Positions 5,530 through 24,351 of a DNA stretch of 35,502 nucleotides are shown in pieces. The notes beneath the pieces were generated by a model. That model saw nothing but the letters and a program-made list of their open reading frames with translations. It did no database searches and had not been told where the DNA came from. A program made the position numbers and the translations under genes. Origin of the DNA: an uncultured Ilumatobacteraceae bacterium (lineage in GTDB: Bacteria > Actinomycetota > Acidimicrobiia > Acidimicrobiales > Ilumatobacteraceae); the NCBI GenBank assembly GCA_965601935.1, contig CBFCWZ010000001.1, positions 1-35,502 of the forward strand, written 5' to 3'. Positions within the stretch are counted from its first letter, which is position 1. Every line of letters starts with the position of its first letter.

Positions 5530-5697
5530 ACTCGTCGTACGAACGCAGGTGCCGGCCTGTGTGGACCCAGTGCACGAGCCGAGAAGCCCGATCCAGGTCG
5601 CCCGCACCGACGTGACGGGTGTCCCGCGCAAAGCAGTTGCACAGCCACCGGGGCTGACCCAGAATGAAGCGGGGTCAGATTCGGGGAAGGGGCCGAG

Positions 5698-7392: not shown

Positions 7393-7411
7393 TCACGAGG
7401 GAACTTCCGCC

Positions 7412-7792
7412 ATGCCTACGATCTTCGCAGCCAACGAGAGCTCCGTCCTCGTCGACGGTGAGCCCCTACTCGGCGTCCAGGCGATCGACTACCGGACCCG
7501 CCGGGCACGCTCGAACCTCTACGCGCTCGGCAGCGCCGAACGGATCGGGGTCACCTCGGGCGCCCACGACGTGGAGGGTCGCCTCCGCGTTGCCTCCGCC
7601 AGCGGTGCGCTCGACGGGCTGGAGGAACAGCAGACATTCCAGGTGGTCGCCAACCTCCGCCACGGCGAGACCGAGGTGACGGTCACCTTCGACGACTGCT
7701 ACCTCACCGAGAAGACCTTCGACCTCGGGGTGGGCGGTCATGGTGAGGCCGTCTACAGCTTCAGCGCCACCCGGGTCCGCGAGGAGCACTGA
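7412..7792 (+). CDS. Tail tube protein (inner tube subunit)
   Basis: ATG at 7412, preceded by GAGGG (7396-7400). It encodes 126 aa, is beta-rich and lies directly after the sheath gene. The size and position are those of Afp1/gp19/Mu gp40-type tube proteins. Sequence: ...SSVLVDGEPLLGVQAIDY...VEGRLRV...TVTFDDCYLTEKTFDLG... Confidence 0.65.
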   Translation: MPTIFAANESSVLVDGEPLLGVQAIDYRTRRARSNLYALGSAERIGVTSGAHDVEGRLRVASASGALDGLEEQQTFQVVANLRHGETEVTVTFDDCYLTEKTFDLGVGGHGEAVYSFSATRVREEH

Positions 7793-7837
7793 CGTGCAAG
7801 CGCCGGGACGGGTGCGCGTGCCGGCGTCGGAGACGCC

Positions 7838-9172
7838 GTGACGGTCGTCATCGACCTCGCCGCCGGGGAGATGCGCGTCGCCGGTTCGGTGTTGGGTGGC
7901 GTGCGTGACGCCTCCGAGCACGGCCTGGGTGCGTTGGCCGTCGGCGACCAGGGCGTCGTCGCACCGGTCACGTTCGGGCAACGAGCCCAGCTCTGCGCAC
8001 TGCACCCTGAGCCGCGTGCCCTCGCCACCGCGCTCCTCGCCACCGCCGCCGTCGGCCGCCCGCTCGGCGACCACGACGACCGCGTCCTGCTGGAGGTTCT
8101 CGCCCTGCGGCTGGCGGGAGCGCGTTCGGAGGCCGATCGGGCCGGTTTCGGCGACGTGGCCGTCACGATGAACAGGGTGTTCGGCTGGCCGGCGTCCGAA
8201 CTCCTCACCGCGCCGGCTCACCTCGTCGACGAACTCGCGGCCAGCGTCCCGGATGACAACGTCCCGTCCACGCCATCGGCCGATGGAGGCGAACGCTCCG
8301 GATGGGTCCGCTACGAGTTGCGTGGCGGCGCCGACGACGAGGACCCGGATGCCGCAGAGCCGGCTGACGCGCTCGACGAACTCCGTGACCTCCTCGCCGG
8401 CGATCTCCTGCGTCGCGGTCGCTCCCCCCTGAGCAGGAGCCTCCGGACCACGTTGCAGCAGGCCGGGGATGCGACCGCTCCCCTTGACCCGACCGAGCCG
8501 AGTGGTGCGACCGAAGCGCGTGGTGCGACCGAGCCGTCTGGCACGAGCGGGCACACGGACGAACCGCCGGCCACCTCGCCGAAGGGCACCGTCACGACCT
8601 CGTCCGGAACCAGGTCGGAGACCGCGCCGACCACGGCGGACGAGCCCCGTCGGCGCGCGCCGAGGAGTGTGCACGACACCGGCGAGGCGGCTGGGTTCGT
8701 CGAGAACGCGGTGAGCGACCCGCAAGTGAACGGTGCTCACGGGGTCGGCGGCCGCGGCGACCTCGAGTCGCCCGCCACCCCAGCAGCCGTCCCGCCCGAC
8801 CCCGCGCCCTCACCCGGTGGCTGGCCGATCGGTGAGGTGACGGAGCAGGCGGCCACCCCGGCCGACGACCGAGCGGAGCCCGCGCCGCGGTCGTCGAGCG
8901 TGCAGCCCGGCCACTCGTCCCGACGAGTGCCGTCGCGAACACAACCGCCGCTCGACACCTCGCCTCCCGACACCCACCGGCCCGACGTCGGGACCCGATC
9001 CGCCCTCGTCGACTCGGCGTCGTCGGTCGCTCCGGTCGACGAGCTGTCGCTCGGGACGTCGGCGCATCTCGGGCCCGCGGCACGGGTCCGCCCGACACTC
9101 GACGACCTCACGGAGGAACTGGCCGTCGCCCTCGACGACGAGGCCGACCTGCGAGGGCTGCAGCGATGGTAG
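7838..9172 (+). CDS. Hypothetical protein with a tail-assembly-chaperone-like N-domain and a long P/S/T/R-rich disordered region (tape-measure position)
   Basis: GTG at 7838 after GGAG. The N-terminal ~140 aa ends in FGWPASELLTAPAHLVDEL, reminiscent of the LGWxPxEFWxxTPxEL motif of GTA/Mu-type tail assembly chaperones. About 270 aa of low-complexity PST-rich sequence follow, then an acidic C-terminus LDDLTEELAVALDDEADLRGLQRW. It lies between the tube gene and the hub genes. Confidence 0.55.
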   Translation: MTVVIDLAAGEMRVAGSVLGGVRDASEHGLGALAVGDQGVVAPVTFGQRAQLCALHPEPRALATALLATAAVGRPLGDHDDRVLLEVLALRLAGARSEADRAGFGDVAVTMNRVFGWPASELLTAPAHLVDELAASVPDDNVPSTPSADGGERSGWVRYELRGGADDEDPDAAEPADALDELRDLLAGDLLRRGRSPLSRSLRTTLQQAGDATAPLDPTEPSGATEARGATEPSGTSGHTDEPPATSPKGTVTTSSGTRSETAPTTADEPRRRAPRSVHDTGEAAGFVENAVSDPQVNGAHGVGGRGDLESPATPAAVPPDPAPSPGGWPIGEVTEQAATPADDRAEPAPRSSSVQPGHSSRRVPSRTQPPLDTSPPDTHRPDVGTRSALVDSASSVAPVDELSLGTSAHLGPAARVRPTLDDLTEELAVALDDEADLRGLQRW

Positions 9173-11889: not shown

Positions 11890-12422
11890 GCGACGTCGAC
11901 CTGGGCCGCGACCTCCGGGTGCTACGCGGGCCACCCGGGTTGGGCGCGCACGATGCCGCGCTGCTCGACCTCCGGCCGCGGCCGCGTCCCACACAGCAAC
12001 CGCGGCAGCCCCGATCGGCGCGGCGACAACCCACCGGCGCGTCCGAGCAGGGCTGGGCGCCCGAACCGCCGGGTGCCGGGGAGGTCGTCGACCTCGAGGT
12101 GATCGAGGGCCGGGAGAACCTGGCCCAGTCACTGGTGCTGCGCCTGCTCACCCCGCTCGGTTCGCTGGCCGACCTGGGCCATGCCGGCTATGGGTCGCGG
12201 CTGGGCGAGCTGATCGGACGCCGCAAGACCGAGTCGTTGCGCGGCCTGTGCCGGGCATTCATCCTCGAGGCACTGGAACGCGAGCCGCGTATCGCCCCCC
12301 GGGCCGTGTCGATCAGGTTCGACCTGCAACGAGAGACGTCGTCGTCGTTCGTGGTGGAGGTCGCGATTCGCCCGGTCGACGGCGGTGAGCCGATCACCGT
12401 GGGCGTGGAGGTGCCGCTGTGA
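11886..12422 (+). CDS. gp25/GPW-like baseplate wedge protein
   Basis: ATGA overlap. The core EGRENLAQSLVLRLLTPLGSLADLGHAGYGSRLGELIG...LRGLCRAFILEALEREPRI... fits the gp25-like lysozyme-fold family. An unusual ~70-aa R/P/Q-rich N-terminal extension precedes it. Confidence 0.8.
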   Translation: MSDVDLGRDLRVLRGPPGLGAHDAALLDLRPRPRPTQQPRQPRSARRQPTGASEQGWAPEPPGAGEVVDLEVIEGRENLAQSLVLRLLTPLGSLADLGHAGYGSRLGELIGRRKTESLRGLCRAFILEALEREPRIAPRAVSIRFDLQRETSSSFVVEVAIRPVDGGEPITVGVEVPL

Positions 12423-14131
12423 GCTTCACCCCGCGCGCCTATCCCGACATCGTGCGCGATGTTCTGACCACACTCACCGGCGGCACGGTCCGTGAGCAGA
12501 CGACGGCACCGGTCGAGGGGCCGATCGTCCTCGACCGCCTCGCCGACCGCCCGGTCCGACGTGTCTCCCACCTCGAGGGCGTGACCCTCGTCGGCGACAC
12601 AGAAGTGGCGGTCCGGTTCACCGACGCCGACTTCGAGCTCGTCGACACCGACGGCACCGGCACCTTCGACGCGATCTCGTTCCGGGACACGGGTCGGTCA
12701 CCGGTGCCGGGGAGCCGGCTCACCGTGAACTACTACCCGGTGGAGACGCGTCCCGCTCCGGTCACCGACCTGAACGTCGGGTCCGTCGTCCGCACCCTCC
12801 TCGAGTCGGTTGCCCGCGAGCTCGCGCTCGAGGAGCAGTACCTGGAGCGGATCTACCGCTCGGCCTTCCTCGAGACGGCGGAGGGCGGCTCACTCGACCG
12901 TGTCGCCGCCCTCGTCGGCGAGACGCGACTCCCGGCGGGTCATCCACTCGTCCGCGTCCGCTTCGCGCGCAACGCCACGACCGGCGGTCGCATCACCGTG
13001 CCGGCCGGAACGATCGTCACCGACGGTGACGGGAACCGCTTCCGCACCTCGGCCGTGCTGGTCCTCGAGCCGGGCGAGGCGTCCCGCGAGATCGTGGCCG
13101 TGGGTGTCACGAAGGAGACGGCGCCGGTCGCTGCGGGTGCGATCGACCGTCTGGAGGTGCTCGTCGCCGGTGTCTCGGCGGTCACGAACCCGGAGCCTGC
13201 CGCCCGGGCGGCAGCACCGGAGACCGACGACGCGTTCCGGCGGCGAACCCGCGGTGCGCTGCACGGAGTGGTCCGGGGAACGCTCGATGCGCTCCGCTAC
13301 GGCGTCCTCGGCGTGCCCGGCGTGAAGGACGTCACCCTCGTCGAGTTCCCGAACGGGGTACCCGGCGAGGTCCGCATCGATGTCGCCTACGACCAGCCGG
13401 GCAACACCGGGGCCGAGCAGGCGGTCGCCGAACGGATCGCCCAGCTCCGCCCGGCCGGGATCCGGGTGCTCTCCGCCGCCGCGGCCCATCGACGCGTCCA
13501 CACCACCATCGCCCTCGTACTCACCGGCACGGGCGTCTCCGGTGCCGAACTCGGTGAGCTCGAGGACGGGGTCGAGGAACGGGTCGCGGCCGGTCTCGCC
13601 GCCATCGCGCCGGGTGGCACCATCCGATCGAACCGGCTCGTCGCCACAGCCCTGGAGGACGCTCGGATCGCCGACGTGGCGATCACCTTCGCCGACGACG
13701 GCGGAAACCCGATCGAGTCGCTGACCCTCGCCGAGGGCGAGGTGCTCGAGGTCGTCCGTCCGTTCTCCTTCCCCCCGCCCGAGTCCGAGAGCGTCTCCGA
13801 GGACACGGTCCTCACCACAGCCGACGTCGATGCCCTCCTTCCCGTCACGCCCGAGATCGGGGTCACGATGGCCGAGGTGCAGTCGGCGGTCGAGTTGGCA
13901 TTCACGTCCCATCTCGGCTCACGTTCGCCCACCGCACCGCTGACCCTCGACGGGGTTGCCACCGCCATCCGCGACGACTCGCGCTTCGCGCTCGATCGCG
14001 CAGCCTCCACGGTCACCGTCGAGCACCAGGGCCGCTTCGTCCAGCTGATCGACGACGGTGGCAGCTACGCACCGGGAAGCGGCGAGACCCTGCGCCTCCG
14101 CACCCTCGACGTGATCGAGGCAACCTCGTGA
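12419..14131 (+). CDS. Baseplate J-like (gp6/gpJ) wedge protein
   Basis: GTGA overlap. It is 570 aa. Baseplate_J-like stretches include VGSVVRTLLESVARELA, ETAEGGSLDRVAALVGETRLPAGHPLVRVRFARN...GRITVPAGTIVTD, VSAVTNPEPA...ETDDAFRRRTRGAL and LGVPGVKDVTLVEFPNGVPGEVRIDV. Confidence 0.75.
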   Translation: MSFTPRAYPDIVRDVLTTLTGGTVREQTTAPVEGPIVLDRLADRPVRRVSHLEGVTLVGDTEVAVRFTDADFELVDTDGTGTFDAISFRDTGRSPVPGSRLTVNYYPVETRPAPVTDLNVGSVVRTLLESVARELALEEQYLERIYRSAFLETAEGGSLDRVAALVGETRLPAGHPLVRVRFARNATTGGRITVPAGTIVTDGDGNRFRTSAVLVLEPGEASREIVAVGVTKETAPVAAGAIDRLEVLVAGVSAVTNPEPAARAAAPETDDAFRRRTRGALHGVVRGTLDALRYGVLGVPGVKDVTLVEFPNGVPGEVRIDVAYDQPGNTGAEQAVAERIAQLRPAGIRVLSAAAAHRRVHTTIALVLTGTGVSGAELGELEDGVEERVAAGLAAIAPGGTIRSNRLVATALEDARIADVAITFADDGGNPIESLTLAEGEVLEVVRPFSFPPPESESVSEDTVLTTADVDALLPVTPEIGVTMAEVQSAVELAFTSHLGSRSPTAPLTLDGVATAIRDDSRFALDRAASTVTVEHQGRFVQLIDDGGSYAPGSGETLRLRTLDVIEATS

Positions 14132-15432
14132 GTGACGGGGCCGAGGCAATGTCCGCACCACCGACGGAGCGAGCGCGCTCACTGGCGTCCCGACTGCCGC
14201 TCCTGTACCGCGACGGCGAGATCCTCAACTCGCTGCTCGACACGGTCGGGCTCCAGCACGAGATCGTCGACGAGAACGCACGTCGTGTGCAGCGCCGCTT
14301 CTGGTTCGACACCGCCCCCGACTTCGACGACGCCGCCAAGCTCGGAGCGCTGCTCGACATCGAGCCCGAGCCCTGGCAGGAACTCGGCGAGTACAGGGCA
14401 TGGTTCCACGCCCTGCGGACCGCCCGTCTCCGTCGCGGTGCGGTCACGGTCGCCGCGCTGCGCGGTTTCGTCGAGGACTACGCCGACGCCTTCGAGACCG
14501 CCGACGACATCGAACTGCTGCCGGATTTCGACACCTGGAACGACGCACCCGTGACCATCGGGCACGCATTCGTCGAGAATCCCGTTCGCGCCCACCGCGC
14601 CGAGCTCGGCGGGCCGACCGGACCGTCGCCGCTCCACCGGCAGACGATCCGCAACGGAGGCCTCGAGGCCACCCCGCTCCACCTGCTGGCCACCGGCACG
14701 GCGAGCGGACCCGAGTACCTCCCTGTTGTCGTCAACGTGACGACGGGGACCGCGCTCGTGCATCACGGGGTCGTCGAGCCCGGACAGCGGCTCTGGATCC
14801 ACTCCCGCGACGACGGGCTCGTGGCCGATCTGGAGGGACGCGACGTGTCGGACCGGTTCCGCACTGTCACCCATGTGGCGCCGGGCGTCCCGTGGGAGGA
14901 CACCCAGACCGACACGGCCGCTCCGCTGATCCTTCGACCTGGCGACAACGAACTCTGGTTCCTCCCCGTCGCGCACTACGACGAACCGGGTCTCGACCGC
15001 GTCCTTCTCGGCCTCGCTGATCTCGACCTGGAACAAGGCCGGTGGAACGAGACCGGTTTCGACCAATCGTTGTTCTTCCAGGACCCTGCGCTCGTTCTCC
15101 AGCTGCTGTGGTCGGAGGCCACCCCCGCGAGCCTGCACGTCGACCTCGACGGTGGTGGACTGCTCAGCCCGGCGGGACGCCTCGACGAGGCCCTGGAGGA
15201 CCGCAGCCAGCTCGAGGCCTCGCTCGCACGGGGTGTCGCATCCCTGTCCGCCGCCGGCGTGGAGTCAGAGGTGCGGCTGCGTCCACACGCATCCAGCCAG
15301 CGCCAACGCGACCGCCTGCGACTCGTGCTTCCACTCATGCAGCACGAGGCGGGAACGGTCGGGATCGACCATCTCCCGGACGCAGGTGGCGTCTTCGGCG
15401 TCACCGATTTCAACGACAGCACGTACCGGTAG
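14128..15432 (+). CDS. Phage tail protein I-like (P2 gpI / Mu gp48 type) baseplate wedge protein
   Basis: GTGA overlap (alternative ATG at 14149). The N-terminus SLASRLPLLYRDGEILNSLLDTVGLQHEIVDENARRVQRRFWFDTAPDFDDAAKLGALLDI fits the LPxxYR...FDxxTAP...L pattern of the gpI-like tail protein domain. It lies directly after baseplate J. Confidence 0.6.
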   Translation: MSDGAEAMSAPPTERARSLASRLPLLYRDGEILNSLLDTVGLQHEIVDENARRVQRRFWFDTAPDFDDAAKLGALLDIEPEPWQELGEYRAWFHALRTARLRRGAVTVAALRGFVEDYADAFETADDIELLPDFDTWNDAPVTIGHAFVENPVRAHRAELGGPTGPSPLHRQTIRNGGLEATPLHLLATGTASGPEYLPVVVNVTTGTALVHHGVVEPGQRLWIHSRDDGLVADLEGRDVSDRFRTVTHVAPGVPWEDTQTDTAAPLILRPGDNELWFLPVAHYDEPGLDRVLLGLADLDLEQGRWNETGFDQSLFFQDPALVLQLLWSEATPASLHVDLDGGGLLSPAGRLDEALEDRSQLEASLARGVASLSAAGVESEVRLRPHASSQRQRDRLRLVLPLMQHEAGTVGIDHLPDAGGVFGVTDFNDSTYR

Positions 15433-15445
15433 GCGAGGAGGAATC

Positions 15446-15949
15446 ATGCGCGGCAGACTTCACCTGGAGGTCCGACGGAGGACAGGTGCCCTCGTCGCGG
15501 AGCGGACGGCGCGGAACACGGTGCTCCGGAGCGGTGGCGGGCTCGTCGCCGGGTTGTTCACCGGTGGCGGCGGGAGCATCACCCACATGGGCGTCGGCAC
15601 CAGCGACGCCGACCCCGCCTCGGTCACCGTGACCGCACTGGCCAACGACGACGGCGCCGGCGGTCCAGGACTCGAGGGGGACGTCACGACACCCATCCCC
15701 GCTGACGCCTTCCTCGTCTCGGACGACGAGACCCACCAGCGCATGGTCGTGCGTGTCCGCGCCACTCTGCCGGAAACGGCGGCGATCGGTACCGTCCGCG
15801 AGGCCGGGCTGCTGTCGCGTCAGGCCGATGGCGACGTGCTCTACAACAGGGTCATCTTCGCTCCCATCGACAAGGGCCCGGATCACGATCTCACCCTGTT
15901 CTGGGAGGTCGAGTTCCCATATGGCGATCTGCACTGGTTGGTGCAGTGA
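15446..15949 (+). CDS. Stand-alone tail-fibre N-terminal (baseplate-attachment, P2 gpH/Mu S N-domain-like) protein
   Basis: ATG at 15446 after GAGGAGG. It is 167 aa. The pattern NTVLRSGGGLVAGLFTGGGGSITHMGVGTSDA...VTALAND...VRVRATLPETAAIGTVREAGLLS...GDVLYNRVIFAPIDKGPDHDLTLFWEVEF resembles the N-terminal 'tail-collar fibre' domain (NxxTxAGxxxxA...I.H.A.GdG...T.L..E...irE.GLf...G.L...). This was recognised by eye only. Confidence 0.45.
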   Translation: MRGRLHLEVRRRTGALVAERTARNTVLRSGGGLVAGLFTGGGGSITHMGVGTSDADPASVTVTALANDDGAGGPGLEGDVTTPIPADAFLVSDDETHQRMVVRVRATLPETAAIGTVREAGLLSRQADGDVLYNRVIFAPIDKGPDHDLTLFWEVEFPYGDLHWLVQ

Positions 15950-16004
15950 TGTCCTCCATCCAGCCGGCTGCGCCGGCACCGCTCCGATCCCCGAGGAGGG
16001 AACC

Positions 16005-16967
16005 ATGAGCTTCGTCAAAGGCGCGATGAACCTCAAATTGCTCGGCCACGCCGCCGCCAACCGGGATGCCGAGATCCGGCTCCGCAACGAAGCGACCGGC
16101 GAGCAGATCACGCGCAAGCCGTTCCTCGACGGCTCGCTGGTGGTCCGCGACATCGACCCCGGCCAGTGGCAGGTGGAGGTGATCCACCCGAACCTGATCG
16201 AGCCGCTGTTCCAGGATCGCGTCCGCGTGATCCCACAACCCCGGCCGATCTATGTGCCGGTTCCCGTCCCGTCGACCCGCTTCGAGGACAACCCCATCCG
16301 CGACCTGCCCGACGCGGATCTCACTCCGATTCAACAGTCGGCGAGTGCCGTCCGCAGCGCGGTGGCCCCGATCGCCGGCAAGGCACCCGGCGAGGTGATC
16401 CGCGCCGACGACTGGAACCAGCTCGTCGCAGCCGTCAGCGACCTCGCGGGATCGGTGTTGGAGTTGACCCGGCTGGTCAGTCCCAGCGGGCACGACCACC
16501 CCGAGATCGCGGCCAAGATCGACGAGGTCCAGGGCAACATCAGACGGTTCGTCGAGTCGTTCGGCCGCAGCCTGCTCGAGCTGCGCCGCGACATCGAGAA
16601 CCAGAGTGTGCGCCGTGCGACCACCGACATGCTCGACCTGGCAGGTGTGGTCGGGCCGGCCCGCGACTCGGTGCTGCGGCGGATGGACGACCTCGAGCTG
16701 TCCCTGCAGGCCACGCCGACGGAGTTCACCCGCAAGATGTCGGCAACGGGGGCGGCTCTGGCGTCGGAGGTCAACCGGATCGCCACGACGCAGGGCACGG
16801 AGGCGGAGGTGTTCCTCGCCGCGCCCGAGACCAAGCGGGTGCTGGTGATGGCCGAGCAGCTGAGCACCAGCGGTGTCCAGACGGCGCCAGAGGAGGAGCT
16901 GGAGACCTATCGCCGCACAGGGCTCGCCGCGGGCGGTTCCAAGTTCACGTTCGCCACGCGGCGTTGA
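16005..16967 (+). CDS. Fibre-like protein with an N-terminal CarboxypepD_reg-like beta-sandwich, an ADDWN...HxH module and a helical C-terminus
   Basis: ATG at 16005 after GAGGAGGG. AEIRLRNEATGEQITRKPFLDGSLVVRDIDPGQWQVEVIHPNL looks like a carboxypeptidase-regulatory-type domain. PGEVIRADDWNQLVAAVSDLAGSVLELTRLVSPSGHDHPE is shared with the next gene. Confidence 0.5.
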   Translation: MSFVKGAMNLKLLGHAAANRDAEIRLRNEATGEQITRKPFLDGSLVVRDIDPGQWQVEVIHPNLIEPLFQDRVRVIPQPRPIYVPVPVPSTRFEDNPIRDLPDADLTPIQQSASAVRSAVAPIAGKAPGEVIRADDWNQLVAAVSDLAGSVLELTRLVSPSGHDHPEIAAKIDEVQGNIRRFVESFGRSLLELRRDIENQSVRRATTDMLDLAGVVGPARDSVLRRMDDLELSLQATPTEFTRKMSATGAALASEVNRIATTQGTEAEVFLAAPETKRVLVMAEQLSTSGVQTAPEEELETYRRTGLAAGGSKFTFATRR

Positions 16968-16994
16968 GCCGCGTCAACCGCGAAGGAAGGGTTC

Positions 16995-18554
16995 ATGTCC
17001 AACGTTGCCGAGATCGAACGGATTGCCGCCCTCGTGGAGCGACTGCTCCCGCTGCGCGACCGTCGGCCGGGTGAGCTCATCGAGGCCGACGACTGGAATG
17101 TCGTGGTCAAGGCGCTCCTCGAGGTCGCCCGCGCCGTGGTCACCGAGGCGGAGACGGCCGTCGCGCCACACAGCCACGCCGACCAGGTCACCGCAGCCTG
17201 GCTCGACCCGGTGTTGCGCGCCCGCCTGGAGAAAGGTCCGCTCACCGATCCGGGGTCCGTCGCCCGGGTCGCCAAGCTCGAACGCACGATCCACGCTCTC
17301 CGCGCCAACATCGACGGCGTGGCCGGTGACCTCACCGGTGTCCGCGCCGCGGCGAACCGCCTGGAGGCGGCCGACCTCGCCCGAGAATCGAACCTGACCC
17401 GGGTCACCCGCAAGGTCGACGGGCTCGACGACGCGCGCGACGCCGTCACCGACGTTCGATCCACGCTCGCCGTTCTGCAGACCGACCTCGATCGCGTGTC
17501 CACGTTGGCCCGCGATCTCGAGGTGGACGGCGACACCATCTCGATCTCCTCGCTCGTCGATCGGCTGGGGGCGCTCGAGGGCTTGCGGACGCGGCTGACC
17601 GGACCGGACGGCGAGGAACTCAACGCGACGACCTTCGCACTCCGGCTCGCCGAGCTGGAGAACACTCTCGTGACGGAGGAGGAGCTCGACGAGGCCCTCG
17701 GCAACGTCCGCGACGACTCCATCTCAGATGAACTCCGCGCGCGGTTGGTCGCCGATGCCCGGACCGCGGCGCGGGAGCAGGCGGACGCCTCGAACACCGA
17801 GCTGGAGGGACGGCTGACCACCGACATCAACGCTCGGCTCGCAGCTGCGGAGAGCGCAGCGACCGCGGCCGCGGCCACCCGCGCCGAGGAGATCGGAGGA
17901 CAACTCGCCGATCAGCTCCGCGCCGAGCTCACCGCCGACATCTCCGCCGGGGACGACGCCGTCCGCGGCACGATCGACGAGGCACTGAGCTCTCTCACCA
18001 CGACGATTCGGACCGAAGTCGACGGGCAGCTCGGCCTTCTCCGCGGCGACCTCGAAGCGAACATCTCCGACGGGCTCGGCAACCTCCGCGAGGAGCTCCG
18101 GGCGACCATCGACGAGTCGATCACCAGCCTCACCTCACGGGTCGACCCGCTCGCCGGGCAGATCGCAGCCGCGGAGAAGGCCAGCGCCACCGCCTCGGCG
18201 CGTGCGGAGGAGCTCGCCCGCGAGCTCGCCCGCACGAGGACGACTCTCACGGATCTGGTCGAGGAGCGCGTTGCCGCAGCCAGGGCTGCCTCCCGCGCCG
18301 ACGCCTTCGCCGCCGACTCGAAGGTCACATCCGGCATGCGCGCCGAGATGGCCGCCGAGCGACAGCGGGTCGACCGGGCCCTCGCCGAGATGCAGAAACG
18401 GATCCCGCGGCTGGTCGATGAGCGCGTCACTACCGCCCGCACCGAGATCGAACGCGACCTCGACGCCCGGATCGACGAGACCCGCACCTCACTCGACGAG
18501 CTGCTCCGCCGTACCGAACGCATCACTCGCCCCGACCTCCGCCGTCCGCAGTAG
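16995..18554 (+). CDS. Long coiled-coil protein carrying the same ADDWN...HxH N-module (fibre shaft or ruler candidate)
   Basis: ATG at 16995 after GAAGGAAGGG. The N-terminus PGELIEADDWNVVVKALLEVARAVVTEAETAVAPHSHAD is paralogous to 16005-16967. The remaining ~440 aa are an uninterrupted D/E/R/L/A/T-rich heptad-like sequence, e.g. LRAELTADISAGDDAVRGTIDEALSSLTTTIRTEVDGQLGLLRGDLEANISDGLGNLREELRATIDESITSL. Confidence 0.6.
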   Translation: MSNVAEIERIAALVERLLPLRDRRPGELIEADDWNVVVKALLEVARAVVTEAETAVAPHSHADQVTAAWLDPVLRARLEKGPLTDPGSVARVAKLERTIHALRANIDGVAGDLTGVRAAANRLEAADLARESNLTRVTRKVDGLDDARDAVTDVRSTLAVLQTDLDRVSTLARDLEVDGDTISISSLVDRLGALEGLRTRLTGPDGEELNATTFALRLAELENTLVTEEELDEALGNVRDDSISDELRARLVADARTAAREQADASNTELEGRLTTDINARLAAAESAATAAAATRAEEIGGQLADQLRAELTADISAGDDAVRGTIDEALSSLTTTIRTEVDGQLGLLRGDLEANISDGLGNLREELRATIDESITSLTSRVDPLAGQIAAAEKASATASARAEELARELARTRTTLTDLVEERVAAARAASRADAFAADSKVTSGMRAEMAAERQRVDRALAEMQKRIPRLVDERVTTARTEIERDLDARIDETRTSLDELLRRTERITRPDLRRPQ

Positions 18555-19460
18555 GTGGTCGTGCTCACGGACTTCGAATCCCGTCTCGCCGACTTCCTCG
18601 GTAGCGGCCTACCCGCCCCCTTCACCGGCCGTGTCGAGGTGGCGCCCGGACCGGCTGCGAGCAACCAGCCCTCGATCACGGTCGCTGTGGTGGAGGCCCG
18701 CCGACTCGCACCCGACTTCGGCAGCACCCGTCCTGAACAGGCACCGGGTGCGGACGACCCGCGCCGCGTCGTGCGACTCGACTGCGACGTCGCCATCGAG
18801 GTCCGCGCGGCGACGAACCAGGGCCGCCCCCAGGCGGTTGCCGGGCTCGACGCCCTCCTCTACGAACTCGACCGCCCGGAGCTCGCCCGGACACCCACGC
18901 TGGAGTCACCCGCCGACGATCCTGGCTTCGTCATCGAGAGCCTGGAGGTCACTTCGGCCCGGACCGCCCCCGAGGAGGGTCTGCCGCGCCTGCTGCTCCA
19001 CGTCGTCGGCTGGTTCTGGCCACCGGATGCGCCGGGAATCACCGGCGCACCCATCGCCGAGGCCCGCGTGCGGACGGTGGCGAGGCCGGTCGACCTGGCC
19101 CCGTGGCCGCTCCGGCTGCGTGCCGGCGACGGGTCGATCGCCCTGACACTGACCACGTCGGCAGGCGGAACCACCCTGCTCGACGGGCAGGGTGTCGCCG
19201 CCGACAGCTTCGGGGCCGTCGCCGTGCGCGTGATCGACGCCGGCGGCCGGCCGGGAGCGGGAACTCTCGCCGGAGGCGACTCCGGGCCGCCGGGGAGCCG
19301 CCTGATCGCGCTGACCGACGGGACGGCCACCGTCGAGTACGTCCCACCGGCCGAGGCCGCCACCGACCACCTCGTCGTGTCCGTCGCCCGTCCGGACACG
19401 GGCGACGGCGCGGAGATCGGAATCGAACTCGCACGCTTCTCGATCGAGGTGACTGCCTGA
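18555..19460 (+). CDS. DUF4255 (Pvc16/Afp16-type) tail terminator/cap protein with a C-terminal beta-rich extension
   Basis: GTG at 18555 abuts the previous TAG. The N-terminus VVLTDFESRLADFLGSGLP...VEVAPGPA...PSITVAVVEARRLAPDF...VRLDCDVAIEV fits the DUF4255 pattern (short N-terminal helix, then 'V.fs.P......p.i.l.L..') seen in CIS cap proteins. The C-terminal ~150 aa look Ig-like: IALTLTTSAGGTTLLDGQG...VAVRVIDAGG...TATVEYVPP... Confidence 0.5.
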   Translation: MVVLTDFESRLADFLGSGLPAPFTGRVEVAPGPAASNQPSITVAVVEARRLAPDFGSTRPEQAPGADDPRRVVRLDCDVAIEVRAATNQGRPQAVAGLDALLYELDRPELARTPTLESPADDPGFVIESLEVTSARTAPEEGLPRLLLHVVGWFWPPDAPGITGAPIAEARVRTVARPVDLAPWPLRLRAGDGSIALTLTTSAGGTTLLDGQGVAADSFGAVAVRVIDAGGRPGAGTLAGGDSGPPGSRLIALTDGTATVEYVPPAEAATDHLVVSVARPDTGDGAEIGIELARFSIEVTA

Positions 19461-21055
19461 TGATGATCGACGCCGTGCTGCTCCTCGCGAAGTCGGCGGT
19501 CTCGGTCCAACTGCCCGTCTTCACGACCCTGGCGCAGGCTGCCCTCCTCCCGATCCTCACCACCCGTGACTGCGGCCCCGAGCCGATCCGCATCCCGTTC
19601 GACTGGGAGCCGCTCGCCGGCACGGACGGCATCGAGGTCGACCCGACCGTGCTGCGGATCGGGCCCCCCGGCTGGAACGCCGCACCGATCCCGCTCGGCG
19701 AGATCGTCCATCGTGCCGACGCGGGGCAGATCGTCGTCGAGATCCCGGCCGGTCACCGGGTCCGCAGCCTCCATCTGGCCGGGCTCCGGGATGCCACCGC
19801 CGACGTCGACCTCTCCGACGAAGCAGACCTCGACGACTGGCGCCTGGCCGTCACTCCTGTCGACCCGTCCGGGCGGTACTTCGCTCCGGTGGTCACGGTC
19901 CCCGCCGTCCGGGCGCGTGGCCAACGCGCAGCGATGTTCGTCGGCGGCTCGTTGCACGACCGCACCCTCAGCCTCCCCGACCTCGAAGCAGCATCCATCC
20001 GCCTCGCGCTGGTGAAGGGCGAGGCACCGGAATTCACCGACTCCCACACCCTCGAGGTCGACCGGGTCACCGGGTGGGCGGCACCCCATCCGCACGGCCT
20101 CACCGTGGCGGGGCCGGACGGAGCCACGCTGTGGTCGTTCCCGGAGACGCTGCTCCCGGGCACCCCGACCGCCGACGCGGACCTCACCGTCGGGGTGCAG
20201 GGATTCCTCGACGCCGCGTTCGCCGCGGGTGGGCCCCTGGGCGGCGAGGTCACCGTCACCGCGGCCCGTCCGGGCCGGGTCGGCCTGTCGATCCCCGCCG
20301 TGCGTGGTGCGTTGCTCCGCAACGTGTCCGGTACGACGACCGCTGCGCTCGCGGGCGACCCGACCGGCGTTCCGCTCGACGGAGACCTGCCCGCGGAGCT
20401 GCCCTCGTCGGTGGTGGCCGACGTCCACGTCCGCTACGACGGAATCCGGCTCGCCGAGATCTCCGACCTGCTCCCCTCCGACCGTGCCGTGGCAGGAACC
20501 GTCGTCGGAGCCGAGCCCGTCGTGCGTGTGCTGCCGCCCGGCGCTCTCCGCGACGAGCAACTGGCTCGGGTCGGAGTCGTCGGACGTGCCCCGGCCGCCT
20601 GCGAGATGTCGATCCACGTGGTCGACTGCTCGCCCGGGGCCGACCACGCCCCACTTGCTCCTCCCGCCGTGTCGACCGTCGGCGCCTCGACCGCGTCCGA
20701 CGACTTCGAGGTCGTCTGGGCGACATTCGATCCGCCGCTCCCGATCGACCGGCCGATCGGGATCTCGGCCACGGCCACCACCGGGACCTTCTGGTGGGTC
20801 GGCGAACCCGATCCGCTCGTACGACTCGCGATCATCGATCCCGACCCGGGTGGTCGGCCGATCCTCCTCGCGGGCGAGACGCTCCTGACCCTCGACGAGC
20901 CGACCCTCACCGTCACCCGTGCCAGCCTGCCCGGCGCCGGGTTCGCCGGGGGTGCGAGCGCGTCGGCGCCGCTCACGCTGGCCAGCGCCCTCTACTGCGC
21001 GATCGAGCTGACCGATCTCACGCTTCGCTACGCGCGACCGAAGAACGGCACATGA
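19460..21055 (+). CDS. Hypothetical protein (531 aa), no family recognised
   Basis: TGATG overlap with the cap gene, followed by two consecutive ATG codons. Codon bias is consistent with coding. The N-terminus MMIDAVLLLAKSAVSVQLPVFTTLAQAALLPIL is hydrophobic. I could not assign the rest to any family. Confidence 0.55.
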   Translation: MMIDAVLLLAKSAVSVQLPVFTTLAQAALLPILTTRDCGPEPIRIPFDWEPLAGTDGIEVDPTVLRIGPPGWNAAPIPLGEIVHRADAGQIVVEIPAGHRVRSLHLAGLRDATADVDLSDEADLDDWRLAVTPVDPSGRYFAPVVTVPAVRARGQRAAMFVGGSLHDRTLSLPDLEAASIRLALVKGEAPEFTDSHTLEVDRVTGWAAPHPHGLTVAGPDGATLWSFPETLLPGTPTADADLTVGVQGFLDAAFAAGGPLGGEVTVTAARPGRVGLSIPAVRGALLRNVSGTTTAALAGDPTGVPLDGDLPAELPSSVVADVHVRYDGIRLAEISDLLPSDRAVAGTVVGAEPVVRVLPPGALRDEQLARVGVVGRAPAACEMSIHVVDCSPGADHAPLAPPAVSTVGASTASDDFEVVWATFDPPLPIDRPIGISATATTGTFWWVGEPDPLVRLAIIDPDPGGRPILLAGETLLTLDEPTLTVTRASLPGAGFAGGASASAPLTLASALYCAIELTDLTLRYARPKNGT

Positions 21056-21056
21056 C

Positions 21057-24000
21057 ATGACAGTGATCGAACAGCTGGCGACGCTGGACTTCGCCACCAT
21101 CGACGACGCACTCGGGCGCGTGCGCACCGCCGTCGACGTCGATGGCGAACTCGACCTCGGTTCCCTCGATGTCGGTTCACTGCTCGGCGATCTCGGACCG
21201 CTGATCGAAACGGTCGAGCAGATCGACAACGACCCTGAGGCGATGCTCGTGCTCGCCCGGTCGGTGCTCGACGACCTCGGCGCGATGTTCGACCTCCCCG
21301 ACGTCGCCGAGTTGGGTGAGCTGGTGGAGGCCATCGCCGCGCTGACCGATCTGATGACCGGTGTCGTCGACGTGCTCACGAGTGGTGACGGACATGAGCT
21401 CGTCGATCGGCTCCTCACCGAGGTCGGGCAGTCACTCGACCTCTCGACGCTCATCGCCGACGTCGTGGGTCGCTCCGCGGACGCCCTCGGCTTCGACGTT
21501 CCCGACGTGCTGGAGGACGCCCTCGACCAGCTCGCCCGGCTCGGCGGGGGCATCGACGACCCGGCTGTTCTGGCCGAGGTCGTGTTGCGGAGCATCGGCG
21601 GGTTCGATCTGGGCGCGATCTCGGCGCTGGCCGTCGGCCTCTCGGGGTCGCTCTCCATCGTCGCCGGTGCAGGCGACCACTCGCGCGTCGCCGGGCTCCT
21701 GGTGTCGCTCGACGTGGAGATCGACGCGGCGATCGCCGCCGCCGGACCGGCCGACGACCTCGAGATCGAGACGCTGGTCGGTGCCGTCGAGCAGGTCTCG
21801 GACACCCTCGACCTGCTCGCCTCGACCGAGTTGCCACGTCTCGTGAACGGCGTTGCAGCCGATCTCCGGAGCGCCCGCAACCAGCTCACCGACCTCGACC
21901 TGGCGTCGAGCCTCGACGACCTGCGGGCCCATCTGCCCGAACGCGGCATCGACTCGCTCGAGGTGCTCGTCGGGCCGCTGCGCGAGATCGCCGCCGCCCT
22001 CGACACCGTCACCTCCGGGTCGATCACCGCCGGCCTCGCCGAGGCCCGTGGAGAGCTCACGAAGTTCGCCACGGAGGGCCCTCTCGGGGATCTGCTCGAC
22101 GGCATCGAACGGGGACAGCAGCTGGTCGTCCGCCAGATCCGTGCACTCCCGCTCGAAGAGGTACGCGACACGGTGGTCACCGCACTGCGCGAGCTCCAGA
22201 ACGAGATCCTCACGTTCCGAGGTTTCGACGTGCTCGACGAGATCGTGGCACCGATCCGTGCACTCGTTCCGCCGCTCCAGGAGCTCGACACGTCGTCCGT
22301 CGAGAACGCCGTCGACGAACTCGTCGCGATGGTCAACGGGGTCTTCTCGGACTTCCCGATCGAGCAACTCCGCGACGCAGTCGACGAGGTCGTCGACCCG
22401 CTCGGCGAGATCATCGATGAGGCGACACCACTGATCGAGGGGATCGCCGACGAACTGGAGGCGCTCGTGGTCCAGATCGACGCGATCGACTTCGACGCCG
22501 CAGGGGCGCAGGTACTGGAGGCGCTGTCGGCGATCCGCTCCGAGGTGCAGGGGGCACTCGACGGTGGCCAGGTGCCCGACGCCCTGAAGGCCGTGATCGC
22601 CGGCGTCGCGTCGACCCTGAAGGCGATGGACCTCGGGGTCGAGCTGAGCGAACCCTTCGAGGCCGCCATGGCCGAGATCGACGTCGGCGCGCTGCTCGAA
22701 CCGATCGAGGAACTGTGGTCCGACCTCGGTGCCGCTCTGGAACGGGTCACGCCCGAGGCCCTGATCGGTGAACTCGACCCACCCTTCGACGACCTGCTGG
22801 CGAAGCTCGACGACATCTCCCTCGCCCCGCTCACCGACGCGCTGAGTGACGTGTTCGACCGCCTACTGGGCGCGATTCGCAGCGCCGACCCACGTACCCT
22901 CATCGCTCCGCTCGAAGCAGAATTCCAGCAACTGCTCGCCACGCTACGAGGGCTGCTGGATCCCGCTCCTCTGTTCGCTCCGCTGCGCCACGCGTACGAC
23001 GAGTTGCACGGAAGCCTCTCCTCGATCGACGTCGAGGCCGCGATGAACGAGGTGCTCGGGGGCATCTCCGACTCGCCGACCATGCTCACCGAGGCAGTGG
23101 GGCAGGAACTCGGCCGCCGCGCCGAGGGTGGTGCCGCCCTCCCCGAGGCCACCGACGAGCTGTTCCGCTTCGGCGACATCATCCGGCCCCTCGCCGCCCT
23201 CGTGGCCGAGATCCGCGGCCGCCTGCACGGTCTCGGCCGGGACGTCGTGGGTGAGGGCCTCGGCCTCGTCGCCGACGCGACCAGGACGCTCCGGTCACTG
23301 CTCGACCCGGCCGACGGAATGGCGACCCGGCTGGCAGCTGCCCTCGACGAGCGCCGGGGCTGGTTCGACGCGACCGCCGGTGACGGTCCGCTCGCCGCCA
23401 CCCGGGCGCGACTGGTCGGCCTGCAGTCGGCGCTCGACGGGCTCACACTCGAGGCGGCTGCCAGGGCGCGCCTCGACGCGGCCATCGGCCCCGTCCGGCT
23501 GGAGGCGCGGGTGGAGCTGGAGGCGTCCGTGACCGCACCGGCGCTCGACGAGGCCGGGCGCGTCGATGCTGCGGCCTCGCCGGGCGGCGTCGGGCGCAGC
23601 ATCCGGCTGCTGACCCGCGCCCTCGACGAACTCCTCCCCGGCCCGCTGCTCGATGAACTCGTCGACCCGCGTGAGGAAGTGGCCGGCTTCATCGACGCAC
23701 TCATCGACCCACTCGATCCTGCGCCGCTGGTGCAGGAGCTCGATCAGATCGGCGAGCAGATCTCCACCACGCTCGCCGGGTTCGTCGACGAGCTCAGCGT
23801 CGGTCTCCTCGATCTCTGGGACGAGCTGATCGCAGGGATGCAGCCGCTCATGCCGACGAGCCTGGCGGCGCGGCTCCAGGCCGTCGTGACCGCGGTCGCC
23901 GAGGAGTTGACGGCGCTCGACCCCGGGGTCATCGAGGTGGAGGCTCGTCAGGTCGTCGACGTGGCGGTGGACCTGCTCGCCCTGCATTCGCCGGCCACCG

Positions 24001-24350
24001 TCGCGGAGGAGTTGGGTGATGTCTTCGATGTCGCCGTGGCAATCGTCGAGGAGCTCGATCCCGCAGATCTCTTGGGCGATCTCGATCCCTTCGCCGGCCT
24101 GCGCTCCGACCTCGAGTTGCTGCGGCCGTCCGTCGTGCTGGCCCCATTGGTCGAGCGGACAGCGGCCCTCACCGACGCGCTCGAACTCGTCGCGTCGATC
24201 GACCTCGACATCGCCGGAGAGCTCGTCGCCCGGCTCGAGGCAGCATTCTCCTCCGTGCTCGAGGGCGTGGAGCGCGAGTGGGACGGCCTGTTGGACGAAC
24301 TCAGTGGGCTGGCGGGCGGAGCCTCGACGAGTGTCAGCGTGGGAACGTGA
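21057..24350 (+). CDS. Hyper-acidic, Leu/Asp/Glu/Ala-rich helical-repeat protein (1097 aa), function unknown
   Basis: ATG lies 1 nt after the previous stop. By my reading there are only 4 Lys and no Cys in 1097 aa. About 23 Asp+Glu against 3 Arg occur in the first 100 residues. Recurrent degenerate motifs include L(D/E)P..L...L..L...LD.. (e.g. LLEPIEELWSDLGAALERV, LIAPLEAEFQQLLATLRGLLDPAPLFAPLRHAYDEL, LIDPLDPAPLVQELDQIGEQI). Confidence 0.7.
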   Translation: MTVIEQLATLDFATIDDALGRVRTAVDVDGELDLGSLDVGSLLGDLGPLIETVEQIDNDPEAMLVLARSVLDDLGAMFDLPDVAELGELVEAIAALTDLMTGVVDVLTSGDGHELVDRLLTEVGQSLDLSTLIADVVGRSADALGFDVPDVLEDALDQLARLGGGIDDPAVLAEVVLRSIGGFDLGAISALAVGLSGSLSIVAGAGDHSRVAGLLVSLDVEIDAAIAAAGPADDLEIETLVGAVEQVSDTLDLLASTELPRLVNGVAADLRSARNQLTDLDLASSLDDLRAHLPERGIDSLEVLVGPLREIAAALDTVTSGSITAGLAEARGELTKFATEGPLGDLLDGIERGQQLVVRQIRALPLEEVRDTVVTALRELQNEILTFRGFDVLDEIVAPIRALVPPLQELDTSSVENAVDELVAMVNGVFSDFPIEQLRDAVDEVVDPLGEIIDEATPLIEGIADELEALVVQIDAIDFDAAGAQVLEALSAIRSEVQGALDGGQVPDALKAVIAGVASTLKAMDLGVELSEPFEAAMAEIDVGALLEPIEELWSDLGAALERVTPEALIGELDPPFDDLLAKLDDISLAPLTDALSDVFDRLLGAIRSADPRTLIAPLEAEFQQLLATLRGLLDPAPLFAPLRHAYDELHGSLSSIDVEAAMNEVLGGISDSPTMLTEAVGQELGRRAEGGAALPEATDELFRFGDIIRPLAALVAEIRGRLHGLGRDVVGEGLGLVADATRTLRSLLDPADGMATRLAAALDERRGWFDATAGDGPLAATRARLVGLQSALDGLTLEAAARARLDAAIGPVRLEARVELEASVTAPALDEAGRVDAAASPGGVGRSIRLLTRALDELLPGPLLDELVDPREEVAGFIDALIDPLDPAPLVQELDQIGEQISTTLAGFVDELSVGLLDLWDELIAGMQPLMPTSLAARLQAVVTAVAEELTALDPGVIEVEARQVVDVAVDLLALHSPATVAEELGDVFDVAVAIVEELDPADLLGDLDPFAGLRSDLELLRPSVVLAPLVERTAALTDALELVASIDLDIAGELVARLEAAFSSVLEGVEREWDGLLDELSGLAGGASTSVSVGT

Positions 24351-24351
24351 G

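Follow-up and report, generated by a model that had tools for sequence, protein, structure and literature searches.

The window analysed here, by which we mean the whole stretch of 35,502 nucleotides from an uncultured Ilumatobacteraceae bacterium (contig CBFCWZ010000001.1 of assembly GCA_965601935.1), carries an operon of the kind that encodes a contractile injection system (CIS). Three adjacent genes of this operon, designated N, O and P, which follow the baseplate gene I, are the subject of this report. Because the G+C content of the window is ~70%, genes were called by GC at the codon positions and by ribosome-binding sites, with the following result for the three genes under study:

15446..15949, + strand: gene N, 167 amino acids; a stand-alone domain resembling the N-domain of tail-collar fibres, candidate baseplate socket or fibre base
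16005..16967, + strand: gene O, 320 amino acids; N-terminal prealbumin/CarboxypepD_reg-like beta-sandwich (residues 1-90), a linker and seven helices
16995..18554, + strand: gene P, 519 amino acids; helical, with a conserved N-terminal part of ~240 residues and a C-terminal half variable in sequence and length

All three were confirmed as real genes. Each starts with ATG behind a ribosome-binding site of the GAGGAGG- or GAAGGAAGG-type, and GC at codon positions 1/2/3 amounts to 0.71/0.51/0.85 in N, 0.69/0.47/0.90 in O and 0.75/0.50/0.87 in P. The genes are tightly packed, with N beginning 13 nucleotides past gene I and intergenic gaps of 13, 55, 27 and 0 nucleotides. Neither transmembrane segments nor signal peptides were found in N, O or P.

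In a preliminary description of this DNA, the products of O and P had been said to share a collinear segment of ~37 amino acids, quoted as two peptides that end in an HxH motif. Translation of positions 16389-16499 yields GEVIRADDWNQLVAAVSDLAGSVLELTRLVSPSGHDH and that of positions 17070-17177 yields GELIEADDWNVVVKALLEVARAVVTEAETAVAPHSH; both peptides are present as quoted when the window is translated, although the positions assigned to them begin one codon past the leading proline. The two copies of the module lie as follows:

16344..16529, + strand: module copy of O, residues 114-175; HxH codons at 16491-16499
17025..17213, + strand: module copy of P, residues 11-73, at the extreme N-terminus; HxH codons at 17169-17177

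The shared collinear module was borne out by a BLASTP comparison of O with P (E=1e-7, 27% identity over 166 columns), and the P family was recovered independently in a profile search described below. When the 18 window proteins were compared with each other, residues 114-175 of O aligned with residues 11-73 of P at 36.5% identity over 63 amino acids (E=2e-5); the only other pairing, that of J with the Rhs protein, was at chance level (E=0.023), and xWN sites occur solely in O and P. As judged by these alignments, O and P are true paralogues that are related through the HxH-containing module. The module is, however, longer than had been described, since it covers at least 63 amino acids: a further helix lies upstream, followed by an L-x-P-[LI] turn and a basic loop. 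The G-E-x-I-x-A-x-D-W-N helix comes next, and a Pro/Gly-flanked H-x-H-x-[DE] loop then leads into the start of a long helix.

In O orthologues the consensus of the module reads as a helix, a P-x-G-K-x-x-G-E-x-I-R-A-x-D-W-N helix, an S-P-x-G-H-D-H-P-E-I loop and the start of the long helix, with G129, E130, I132, D136, N138, P160, G162, H163, H165, P166, E167 and I168 as invariant residues; the invariant residues of the P copy are G26, E27, A31, W34, N35, H59, H61, Q64, W69 and P72. The strict motif is present in 67 of the 70 O orthologues and in 55 of the 69 P orthologues. A relaxed form is found in the two divergent O sequences and in 11 of the 14 remaining P sequences, and the other three P reading frames look truncated or mis-framed. 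The HxH keeps a fixed spacing from the G-E motif, of 35/37 amino acids in O and 36-38 amino acids in P. The HxH itself takes the form HDH in 61 O orthologues, HGH in five and HAH in one, while HEH, HDH, HTH, HSH, HQH, HAH and HNH all occur among the P orthologues.

A profile of the O orthologues, searched against 1.84 billion representative proteins, returned 114 proteins: O orthologues and fragments thereof, the P family, adhesins that match the sandwich, and a single 470-residue protein. The P-family proteins (513-541 amino acids) were recovered at positions 110-166 of the O profile through their own residues 8-64. Outside O and P, the module was thus seen in the 470-residue protein only (P0348), which has the DWN helix and no HxH and may be a protein that makes use of this helix at a greater distance from O and P. 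P0348 is encoded at positions 473-1885 of a 3.2-kb metagenomic contig, begins with G-D-L-I-R-S-S-D-W-N-A-L-V and has unrelated small open reading frames (ORFs) as neighbours; a pairing with an N-like gene was considered and rejected, as the gene upstream of P0348 is unrelated. A search with a 74-residue profile of the module alone returned 13 short fragments, all from the O and P families, and the module has no match in Pfam, PHROGs or the PDB. Within the ~70 syntenic loci of this system the motif recurs; in IMG/VR and among the GenBank phages no relatives of O or N were found at the sequence level.

The fibres of the P2 gpH type carry, at residues ~140-155 and right after their PF12571 domain, a common A-T-[QR]-x-[YW]-V motif. 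It is similar to the A-x-D-W-N-x-L-V stretch of O and P, and in P2 gpH an R-R-H-P-D-A sequence follows shortly afterwards. An equation of the A-x-D-W-N-x-L-V helix with this A-T-Q-[DQ]-[YW]-V "neck" was rejected at an hhalign E-value of 0.83, and we regard it as a lead only.

The AlphaFold2 model of O (predicted local distance difference test, pLDDT, 77) comprises a confident beta-sandwich at residues 1-90, helices at residues 107-124 and 134-158, and a low-confidence loop at residues 160-163 that runs into the HxH at residues 163-165. A 48-residue helix (residues 166-213) and four more helices follow, with high confidence at residues 200-290. The region of the module is predicted to be helical and has low tertiary confidence, as expected for an interface between subunits. 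Read from the sequence, an a/d heptad pattern (W137, L140, V144, L147, V151, L154, V158) precedes the loop and resumes behind it (I168, I172, V175, I179, F182, F186). The preliminary description had likened the HxH to that of fibres such as T4 gp37; this part of it is not supported, since the HxH of O is placed in a predicted helix-loop-helix, unlike that of a beta-structured fibre.

The most conserved part of O lies at residues 121-200, with a peak consensus of 0.86 at residues 161-180, and the protein can be aligned over its full length with a consensus of at least 0.41 throughout. Its invariant polar residues are K126, E130, D136, N138, D146, H163, H165, E167, K171, E174, Q176, N178 and R180. 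In a Foldseek search of the PDB, O was matched through its sandwich only (CnaB2, pilins, domain III of rhamnogalacturonan lyase, EMC7) and no TssK-like match was found; distant sequence matches of the sandwich are to the CarboxypepD_reg/SdrD_B repeats of large adhesins. Profiles of O and of the module found no match in the PDB.

Ala (16.8%), Leu (12.5%), Arg (12.1%) and also Glu are abundant in P, in which Pro is scarce (2.1%), and the helical amphipathic periodicity of the protein (3.4-3.8 residues) is ~3-fold above that of shuffled sequences. Conservation is 0.5-0.65 over residues 1-240 and drops to 0.22-0.33 beyond, where indels occur as well; the orthologues in the loci that were read measure 488-594 amino acids. 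The variable half shows no recognisable globular domain and no match in Pfam, PHROGs or the PDB. When N, O and P were compared directly with Pfam, PHROGs, NCBIfam and the PDB, phrog_5417 for N was the one match obtained, the remainder being coiled-coil noise.

For N, AlphaFold2 predicts from an alignment of 26 sequences a beta-rich domain with one helix (pLDDT 89.9; predicted template modelling score, pTM, 0.84), and the protein falls in phrog_5417 (E=3e-13). Foldseek found 74 matches to this model in BFVD at E≤1e-3. The best of them (template modelling, TM, score ~0.7) are stand-alone, uncharacterised phage proteins of 150-200 amino acids, followed by the N-termini of "Tail fiber" proteins from Xanthomonas phage phi31 (query TM-score, TMq, 0.73, E=8e-8) and Stenotrophomonas phage Ponderosa; proteins annotated as "Tail-collar fiber protein" match with a TMq of 0.44-0.55 and E-values of ~1e-5 to 1e-4. 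The position of the gene is that of a fibre gene, which directly follows a gpI-like gene in P2, Sulfurimonas phage SNW-1, Xanthomonas phage FoX2 and Clostridium phage CDMH1. As had been proposed, N is a stand-alone protein: each of the 70 loci encodes it separately, and not one fusion with O or P was observed. We take N to be a fibre-base-type domain expressed alone. The splitting-off of such a domain is not unusual, because stand-alone N-like proteins are common in phages.

A single significant match of N was obtained in the PDB by Foldseek, namely chain 9h4p_BD, a 953-residue tail chain of HFTV1 (E=6e-6). An identification of this chain as the tail fibre gp42 was rejected, since its length fits the hub protein gp44 (954 amino acids); the likeness sits at an internal domain near residue 410 of gp44, where hhalign gives a weak match. 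The N-like domain within gp44, the baseplate hub protein of HFTV1, which is an archaeal siphovirus (gene at 5026-7890 of the HFTV1 sequence), suggests that the fibre-base fold also begins extensions of hub proteins. A profile search of the PDB found no sequence relatives of N.

The three genes belong to a system that is widely distributed. Sixty-seven loci were found by scanning one genome per species, in Actinomycetota, Chloroflexota, Gemmatimonadota, Acidobacteriota, Verrucomicrobiota, Nitrospinota, Binatia, alpha-, beta-, gamma- and deltaproteobacteria, Ignavibacteria, Kapaibacteriota and Rhodothermales, and cyanobacteria carry the operon as well. Gene by gene, its synteny extends to ~70 genomes that belong to at least 12 phyla. 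The neighbourhoods in Nodosilinea sp. E11 and Mycolicibacterium agri contain all 17 genes at unchanged sizes, and gene sizes are likewise kept in the two loci that diverge most. A tblastn matrix generally shows each of the genes between sheath and Rhs, these two included, wherever the contig reaches, the 444-residue gene and PAAR being the exceptions; N and O were each detected in all 70 loci, and P was detected in 69 of them. The closest genome match is an Ilumatobacteraceae metagenome-assembled genome (MAG), with 90% identity for O.

Sheath, tube and PAAR rank highest by identity. A second group is made up of N, O, J and the DNA_circ_N-like protein and a third of gp25, V and I, after which come Q, GPD, P together with R, Rhs and, last, S, in this order. 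N (34-77% identity) and O (37-90%) are conserved like J and gp25. There are 382 cluster-level homologues of O, and the 120 listed are 312-323 amino acids long, at least 50% identical across phyla, almost all unnamed and free of any Pfam domain; N has 481 cluster-level homologues, of which the 120 listed measure 162-179 amino acids. Relatives of N were not found by tblastn in 50,697 phage genomes, nor relatives of O or N by profile scans in 2.9 million IMG/VR contigs, so that the module is uncommon in phages at the sequence level. No description of the lineage was found in the literature searched, and the locus appears to represent an undescribed CIS lineage.

Pfam and PHROG scans place N, O and P within a single + strand operon of 17 genes that runs from the sheath to the Rhs gene (5698-30123) and otherwise contains:

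5698-7392, + strand: sheath; its only Pfam match is C-terminal (Phage_sheath_1C)
Directly after the sheath gene, + strand: tube, an ORF of ~130 amino acids, assigned from position and size
7838-9172, + strand: a 444-residue protein at the tape-measure position, poorly conserved
Between the tape-measure-position gene and the hub, + strand: DNA_circ_N/DUF6046-like protein, from the Pfam/PHROG scans
Next, + strand: Phage_GPD hub, then Phage_base_V spike, PAAR and a gp25-like protein (Pfam/PHROG; the GPW_gp25 match is weak)
12419-14131, + strand: J, Baseplate-J/gp6-like wedge protein (phrog_6 baseplate wedge, E=2e-39; Baseplate_J in orthologues)
14128-15432, + strand: I, the gene at the gpI/gp7 position, 434 amino acids, placed via a gene order as in P2 V-W-J-I-H
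18555..30123, + strand: Q (301 amino acids), R (530 amino acids), S and T, co-conserved and completing the operon
21057-24350, + strand: S, 1,097 amino acids, helical
24352-30123, + strand: T, Rhs-repeat protein, 1,923 amino acids (RHS_repeat, E=4.5e-8), the last conserved gene

DNA_circ_N, GPD, V, gp25, J and I follow one another as they do in Mu and P2, in both of which the tail fibre is the next gene after the I slot (P2: V-W-J-I-H-G). The ORF after the sheath gene has no family match, its label as the tube resting on position and size. In any window ORF scanned, we found no match to the AAA+ ATPase (Afp15/Cis15) or to the DUF4255 cap protein (Afp16). A phmmer search of the sheath against all PDB chains returned zero matches at E≤1e-3, which sets the lineage far from every structurally solved contractile system.

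The 444-residue gene at the tape-measure position is the sole operon gene that tblastn usually misses; it was found in 11 of ~54 loci with 28-42% identity. PAAR went undetected by tblastn in five otherwise syntenic loci (L008, L044, L046, L050 and L051). S, the least conserved member of the operon (21-69% identity to orthologues, mostly 22-30%), contains 17% Leu and 10% Asp and moderately hydrophobic stretches at residues 89-107 and 185-229, and its matches are of the coiled-coil type only (Baculo_PEP_C and phrog_1204, "tail protein"). Over those parts of the Rhs-repeat protein that were seen in other loci, identity is 27-60%. The gene has no obvious immunity gene behind it; a convergent fructosamine kinase gene comes next (30278-31408). 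The flanking host genes encode PhoX, a beta-propeller protein, fructosamine kinase, LacI regulators, a GH16 enzyme and an ABC permease. An ORF at 4600-5529 (309-residue translation), located in a stretch of lower GC just upstream of the sheath gene, has two strongly hydrophobic segments, at residues ~134-162 and 254-275. In 18 metagenome loci, no ATPase, membrane protein or any other gene is conserved upstream of the sheath, and this ORF is therefore probably unrelated to the system.

We consider the most plausible reading of these data, to which we assign a probability of roughly 0.45, to be that the distal baseplate of an uncharacterised Mu-like CIS, one that carries PAAR and a giant Rhs protein and in which no ATPase was found, includes N, O and P as invariant structural subunits. 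N would be the fibre-base domain made as a separate polypeptide, an oligomer of which probably sits on the wedge proteins J and I in the way of the N-domain of P2 gpH-type fibres; the products of J and I are the likely docking partners of the N-O-P module as a whole. The module of ~65-80 amino acids most likely serves O and P as the core for oligomerisation and docking, which a His-coordinated metal ion may hold together. P would project from it as a long, evolutionarily flexible helical strut or fibre, and O would present its prealbumin-like beta-sandwich together with a compact helical bundle. Together, the three proteins would form a fixed network of fibres, struts or connectors that runs from the wedge to the outside or to Q, R, S and the Rhs protein. 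An exchangeable receptor-binding fibre appears to fit poorly, because the conservation of N and O across phyla is on a level with that of the core of the baseplate and no variable globular tip was recognised.

Several observations weigh against this assignment of N, O and P to the distal baseplate. The likeness of N to the N-domain of P2 gpH/Mu S-type fibres, which the preliminary description had put forward, is upheld by the predicted fibre/tail-collar fold and by the slot after a gpI-like gene; at the sequence level it is weak. N has no match to PF12571 at E≤0.1, nor do 26 members of its family match at E≤1, and P2 gpH itself scores 3e-57 against this model. When residues 22-150 of N were aligned by hhalign with residues 4-140 of gpH, using a gpH profile built from nine gpH-type N-domains, 113 columns were collinear at E=P=0.0038 and a probability of 8.7%, with I-T-H-M-G-V-G and R-E-A-G-L of N opposite I-T-x-M-A-V-G-D and R-E-x-G-L of gpH; single sequences yielded a 12-column match only. 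The sole PDB match of N is to an internal domain of the siphovirus hub HFTV1 gp44 and to no fibre, and no solved structures were found that resemble the helical parts of O and P. The heptad periodicity of P is modest, with peaks at 3.67-3.8 residues, so that a helical-repeat bundle is as possible for P as a coiled-coil fibre. The strong conservation of the three proteins is compatible with assembly factors, too. Finally, the reality of the genes, the paralogy of O and P, the predicted monomer folds, the synteny and the pattern of conservation are established by the present analysis, and it is incorporation into the particle, docking to the wedge, oligomeric state, metal binding and role that we infer.

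A more far-reaching version of this proposal, which we put forward tentatively and hold to be somewhat improbable, is that the system constitutes a distinct pan-phylum class of CIS with a split fibre of three proteins, in which the fibre-base socket N would stand beside the paralogous helical proteins O and P, and in which the invariant HxH modules of O and P, possibly as a heteromer around an axial metal ion, would build a firing-trigger or strut network. Such a class would combine a Mu-like baseplate with an Rhs protein mounted via PAAR, would do without a recycling or loading ATPase, and would have replaced the beta-structured fibre.

Among the alternatives to a distal-baseplate role, the one that survives best, although we judge it unlikely, is that N, O and P act as connectors, by which the baseplate would be tethered either to some structure of the cell that produces it or to the complex of Q, R, S and the Rhs protein, with firing within or at the envelope. 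Analogues would be TssK in type VI secretion systems (T6SS), CisA in the Streptomyces CIS and the baseplate extensions of thylakoid-anchored CISs. The extreme conservation suits binding to conserved partners, and the loading of cargo onto the spike by PAAR and Rhs is the way of the T6SS. Seven co-conserved genes follow the wedge, including that for S (1,097 amino acids) with its hydrophobic stretches at residues 185-229, and the CIS of Streptomyces coelicolor (CIS-Sc) encodes the membrane adaptor CisA at the same gene position (PMC12237407). However, transmembrane segments are absent from N, O and P, the 18 loci inspected share neither a membrane protein nor an ATPase upstream of the sheath, and the Foldseek search gave no TssK-like match. 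The presence of the system in monoderm and diderm phyla alike argues against a specific envelope complex.

Quite doubtful in our view is the idea that the three proteins are a receptor-binding tail-fibre set of a released particle, the contraction of which is triggered when the fibre binds to a target surface. N occupies the fibre slot and has a fibre-base fold, P combines a conserved N-terminus with a variable C-terminal half in a fibre-like manner, O contains a prealbumin/CarboxypepD_reg-like domain of the kind used by adhesins, and none of the three has a membrane anchor. Likewise, the fibres of extracellular CISs (eCISs) and tailocins are encoded after the baseplate genes (PMC12237407; PMC8213781). 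Against this stand the at least 45-50% identity of N and O from cyanobacteria to mycobacteria to deltaproteobacteria, their constant length and the absence of a hypervariable tip; the variable half of P contains no recognisable receptor-binding domain and has no Pfam, PHROG or PDB match, and neither a tail-fibre chaperone nor an S74-type domain was found. A lysis cassette was not noticed among the window ORFs scanned, no search having been aimed at one. The extracellular, target-binding mode of action suggested at the outset is hence a weak inference, as N and O are conserved like the core of the baseplate and neither has a variable receptor-binding tip.

That O and/or P are assembly or loading factors outside the finished particle, i.e., chaperones of a fibre or of Rhs or scaffolds, we hold to be very improbable: a chaperone gene follows the fibre gene in P2 and Mu, helical coiled-coil-like proteins are often scaffolds and no structural homologue puts O or P in the particle, but their sizes (320 and 519 amino acids) and the beta-sandwich are unlike the ~175-residue fibre-assembly protein gpG of P2 (gene G, 528 nucleotides), the occurrence of two paralogues with an invariant module points to stoichiometric use in a structure, and O is conserved as much as the wedge proteins.

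The periphery of the baseplate decides where and when CISs fire. To our knowledge, all characterised solutions consist of beta-structured fibres, of TssK with a membrane complex, or of a membrane adaptor. If the distal-baseplate proposal is true, the N-O-P module would be a fourth, helix-based solution, and its conservation extends from mycobacteria and Cellulomonas over cyanobacteria and Chloroflexota to Syntrophus, in an Rhs system for which no ATPase was found. The O and P families have no annotation in any library searched, yet they carry near-invariant, easily mutated motifs, and several carriers of the system are culturable, among them Mycolicibacterium agri and M. senegalense, Cellulomonas uda and C. 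gelida, Humibacillus xanthopallidus, Variovorax brevis and Nodosilinea sp. E11.

Among known proteins, those with the PF12571 domain (the base of P2 gpH/Mu S-type fibres) resemble N in the gene slot after a gpI-like wedge gene, in the size of the domain (~150-167 amino acids) and, as far as the predicted model allows, in the fold (BFVD tail-collar and tail fibre matches with E-values of 1e-8 to 1e-4). They differ in that the PF12571 domain begins a long fibre, whereas N is a separate polypeptide of 167 amino acids in all 70 loci, and the Pfam model is blind to N, which belongs to phrog_5417. HxH metal sites on a three-fold axis are present in the tip of T4 gp37, in T4 gp12 and at the apex of P2 gpV and phi92 gp138. 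O and P, likewise encoded in a tail locus, share with these proteins an invariant H-x-H followed by an acidic residue, and by analogy three copies of O or P would supply six histidines for octahedral coordination. The HxH of gp37, gp12 and gpV is, however, part of a beta-helix or prism, whereas that of O and P is modelled in a Pro/Gly-flanked loop between predicted heptad helices, and no relation in sequence or structure of O and P to the HxH fibres and spikes was found. P can also be compared with T4 fibritin (wac) and other segmented coiled-coil fibres, which are like it in a length of ~500 amino acids, a helical nature, Gly/Pro breaks and a conserved N-terminal end that would suit attachment, with a variable remainder. 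Sequence similarity between P and fibritin was not found, and P lacks a conserved, foldon-like C-terminal element and has a modest heptad periodicity.

With the CIS of S. coelicolor (type IId), our locus has in common its occurrence in Actinomycetota, its contractile nature and a non-canonical protein in the slot after the baseplate genes (PMC12237407). That CIS lacks fibres, as the preliminary description had correctly stated, and it is CisA, a membrane adaptor, that CIS-Sc encodes at this gene position (PMC12237407). Unlike this membrane protein, N, O and P are devoid of transmembrane segments. The locus further differs by a split GPD hub and V spike, a DNA_circ_N-like protein and a conserved Rhs protein, and no Cis15 ATPase was found. 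The assignment to an actinobacterial, Streptomyces-type CIS in the preliminary description is therefore not tenable: hub and spike are divided among several proteins (DNA_circ_N, GPD, V, PAAR) in the manner of Mu, neither an AAA+ ATPase nor a DUF4255 protein was found, and the sheath has no PDB relative by sequence; the Mu-like gene content, the isolated sheath and an Ilumatobacteraceae MAG as the closest match set it apart from type IId. eCISs of the Afp/PVC type share sheath, tube, gp25, Baseplate_J and a PAAR tip with this locus, the sheath of which has no sequence relative in the PDB (phmmer, E≤1e-3). Tailocins have variable, beta-structured fibres with a chaperone and kill by depolarisation without any cargo. 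R-type pyocins and other tailocins are like this locus in being head-less, chromosomal tail modules of the Mu/P2 type with no AAA+ ATPase and with a fibre slot after gpI; the system described here differs from them in its PAAR protein, its 1,923-residue Rhs protein, the seven conserved genes behind the wedge, its occurrence in at least 12 phyla and the conservation of its "fibre" genes.

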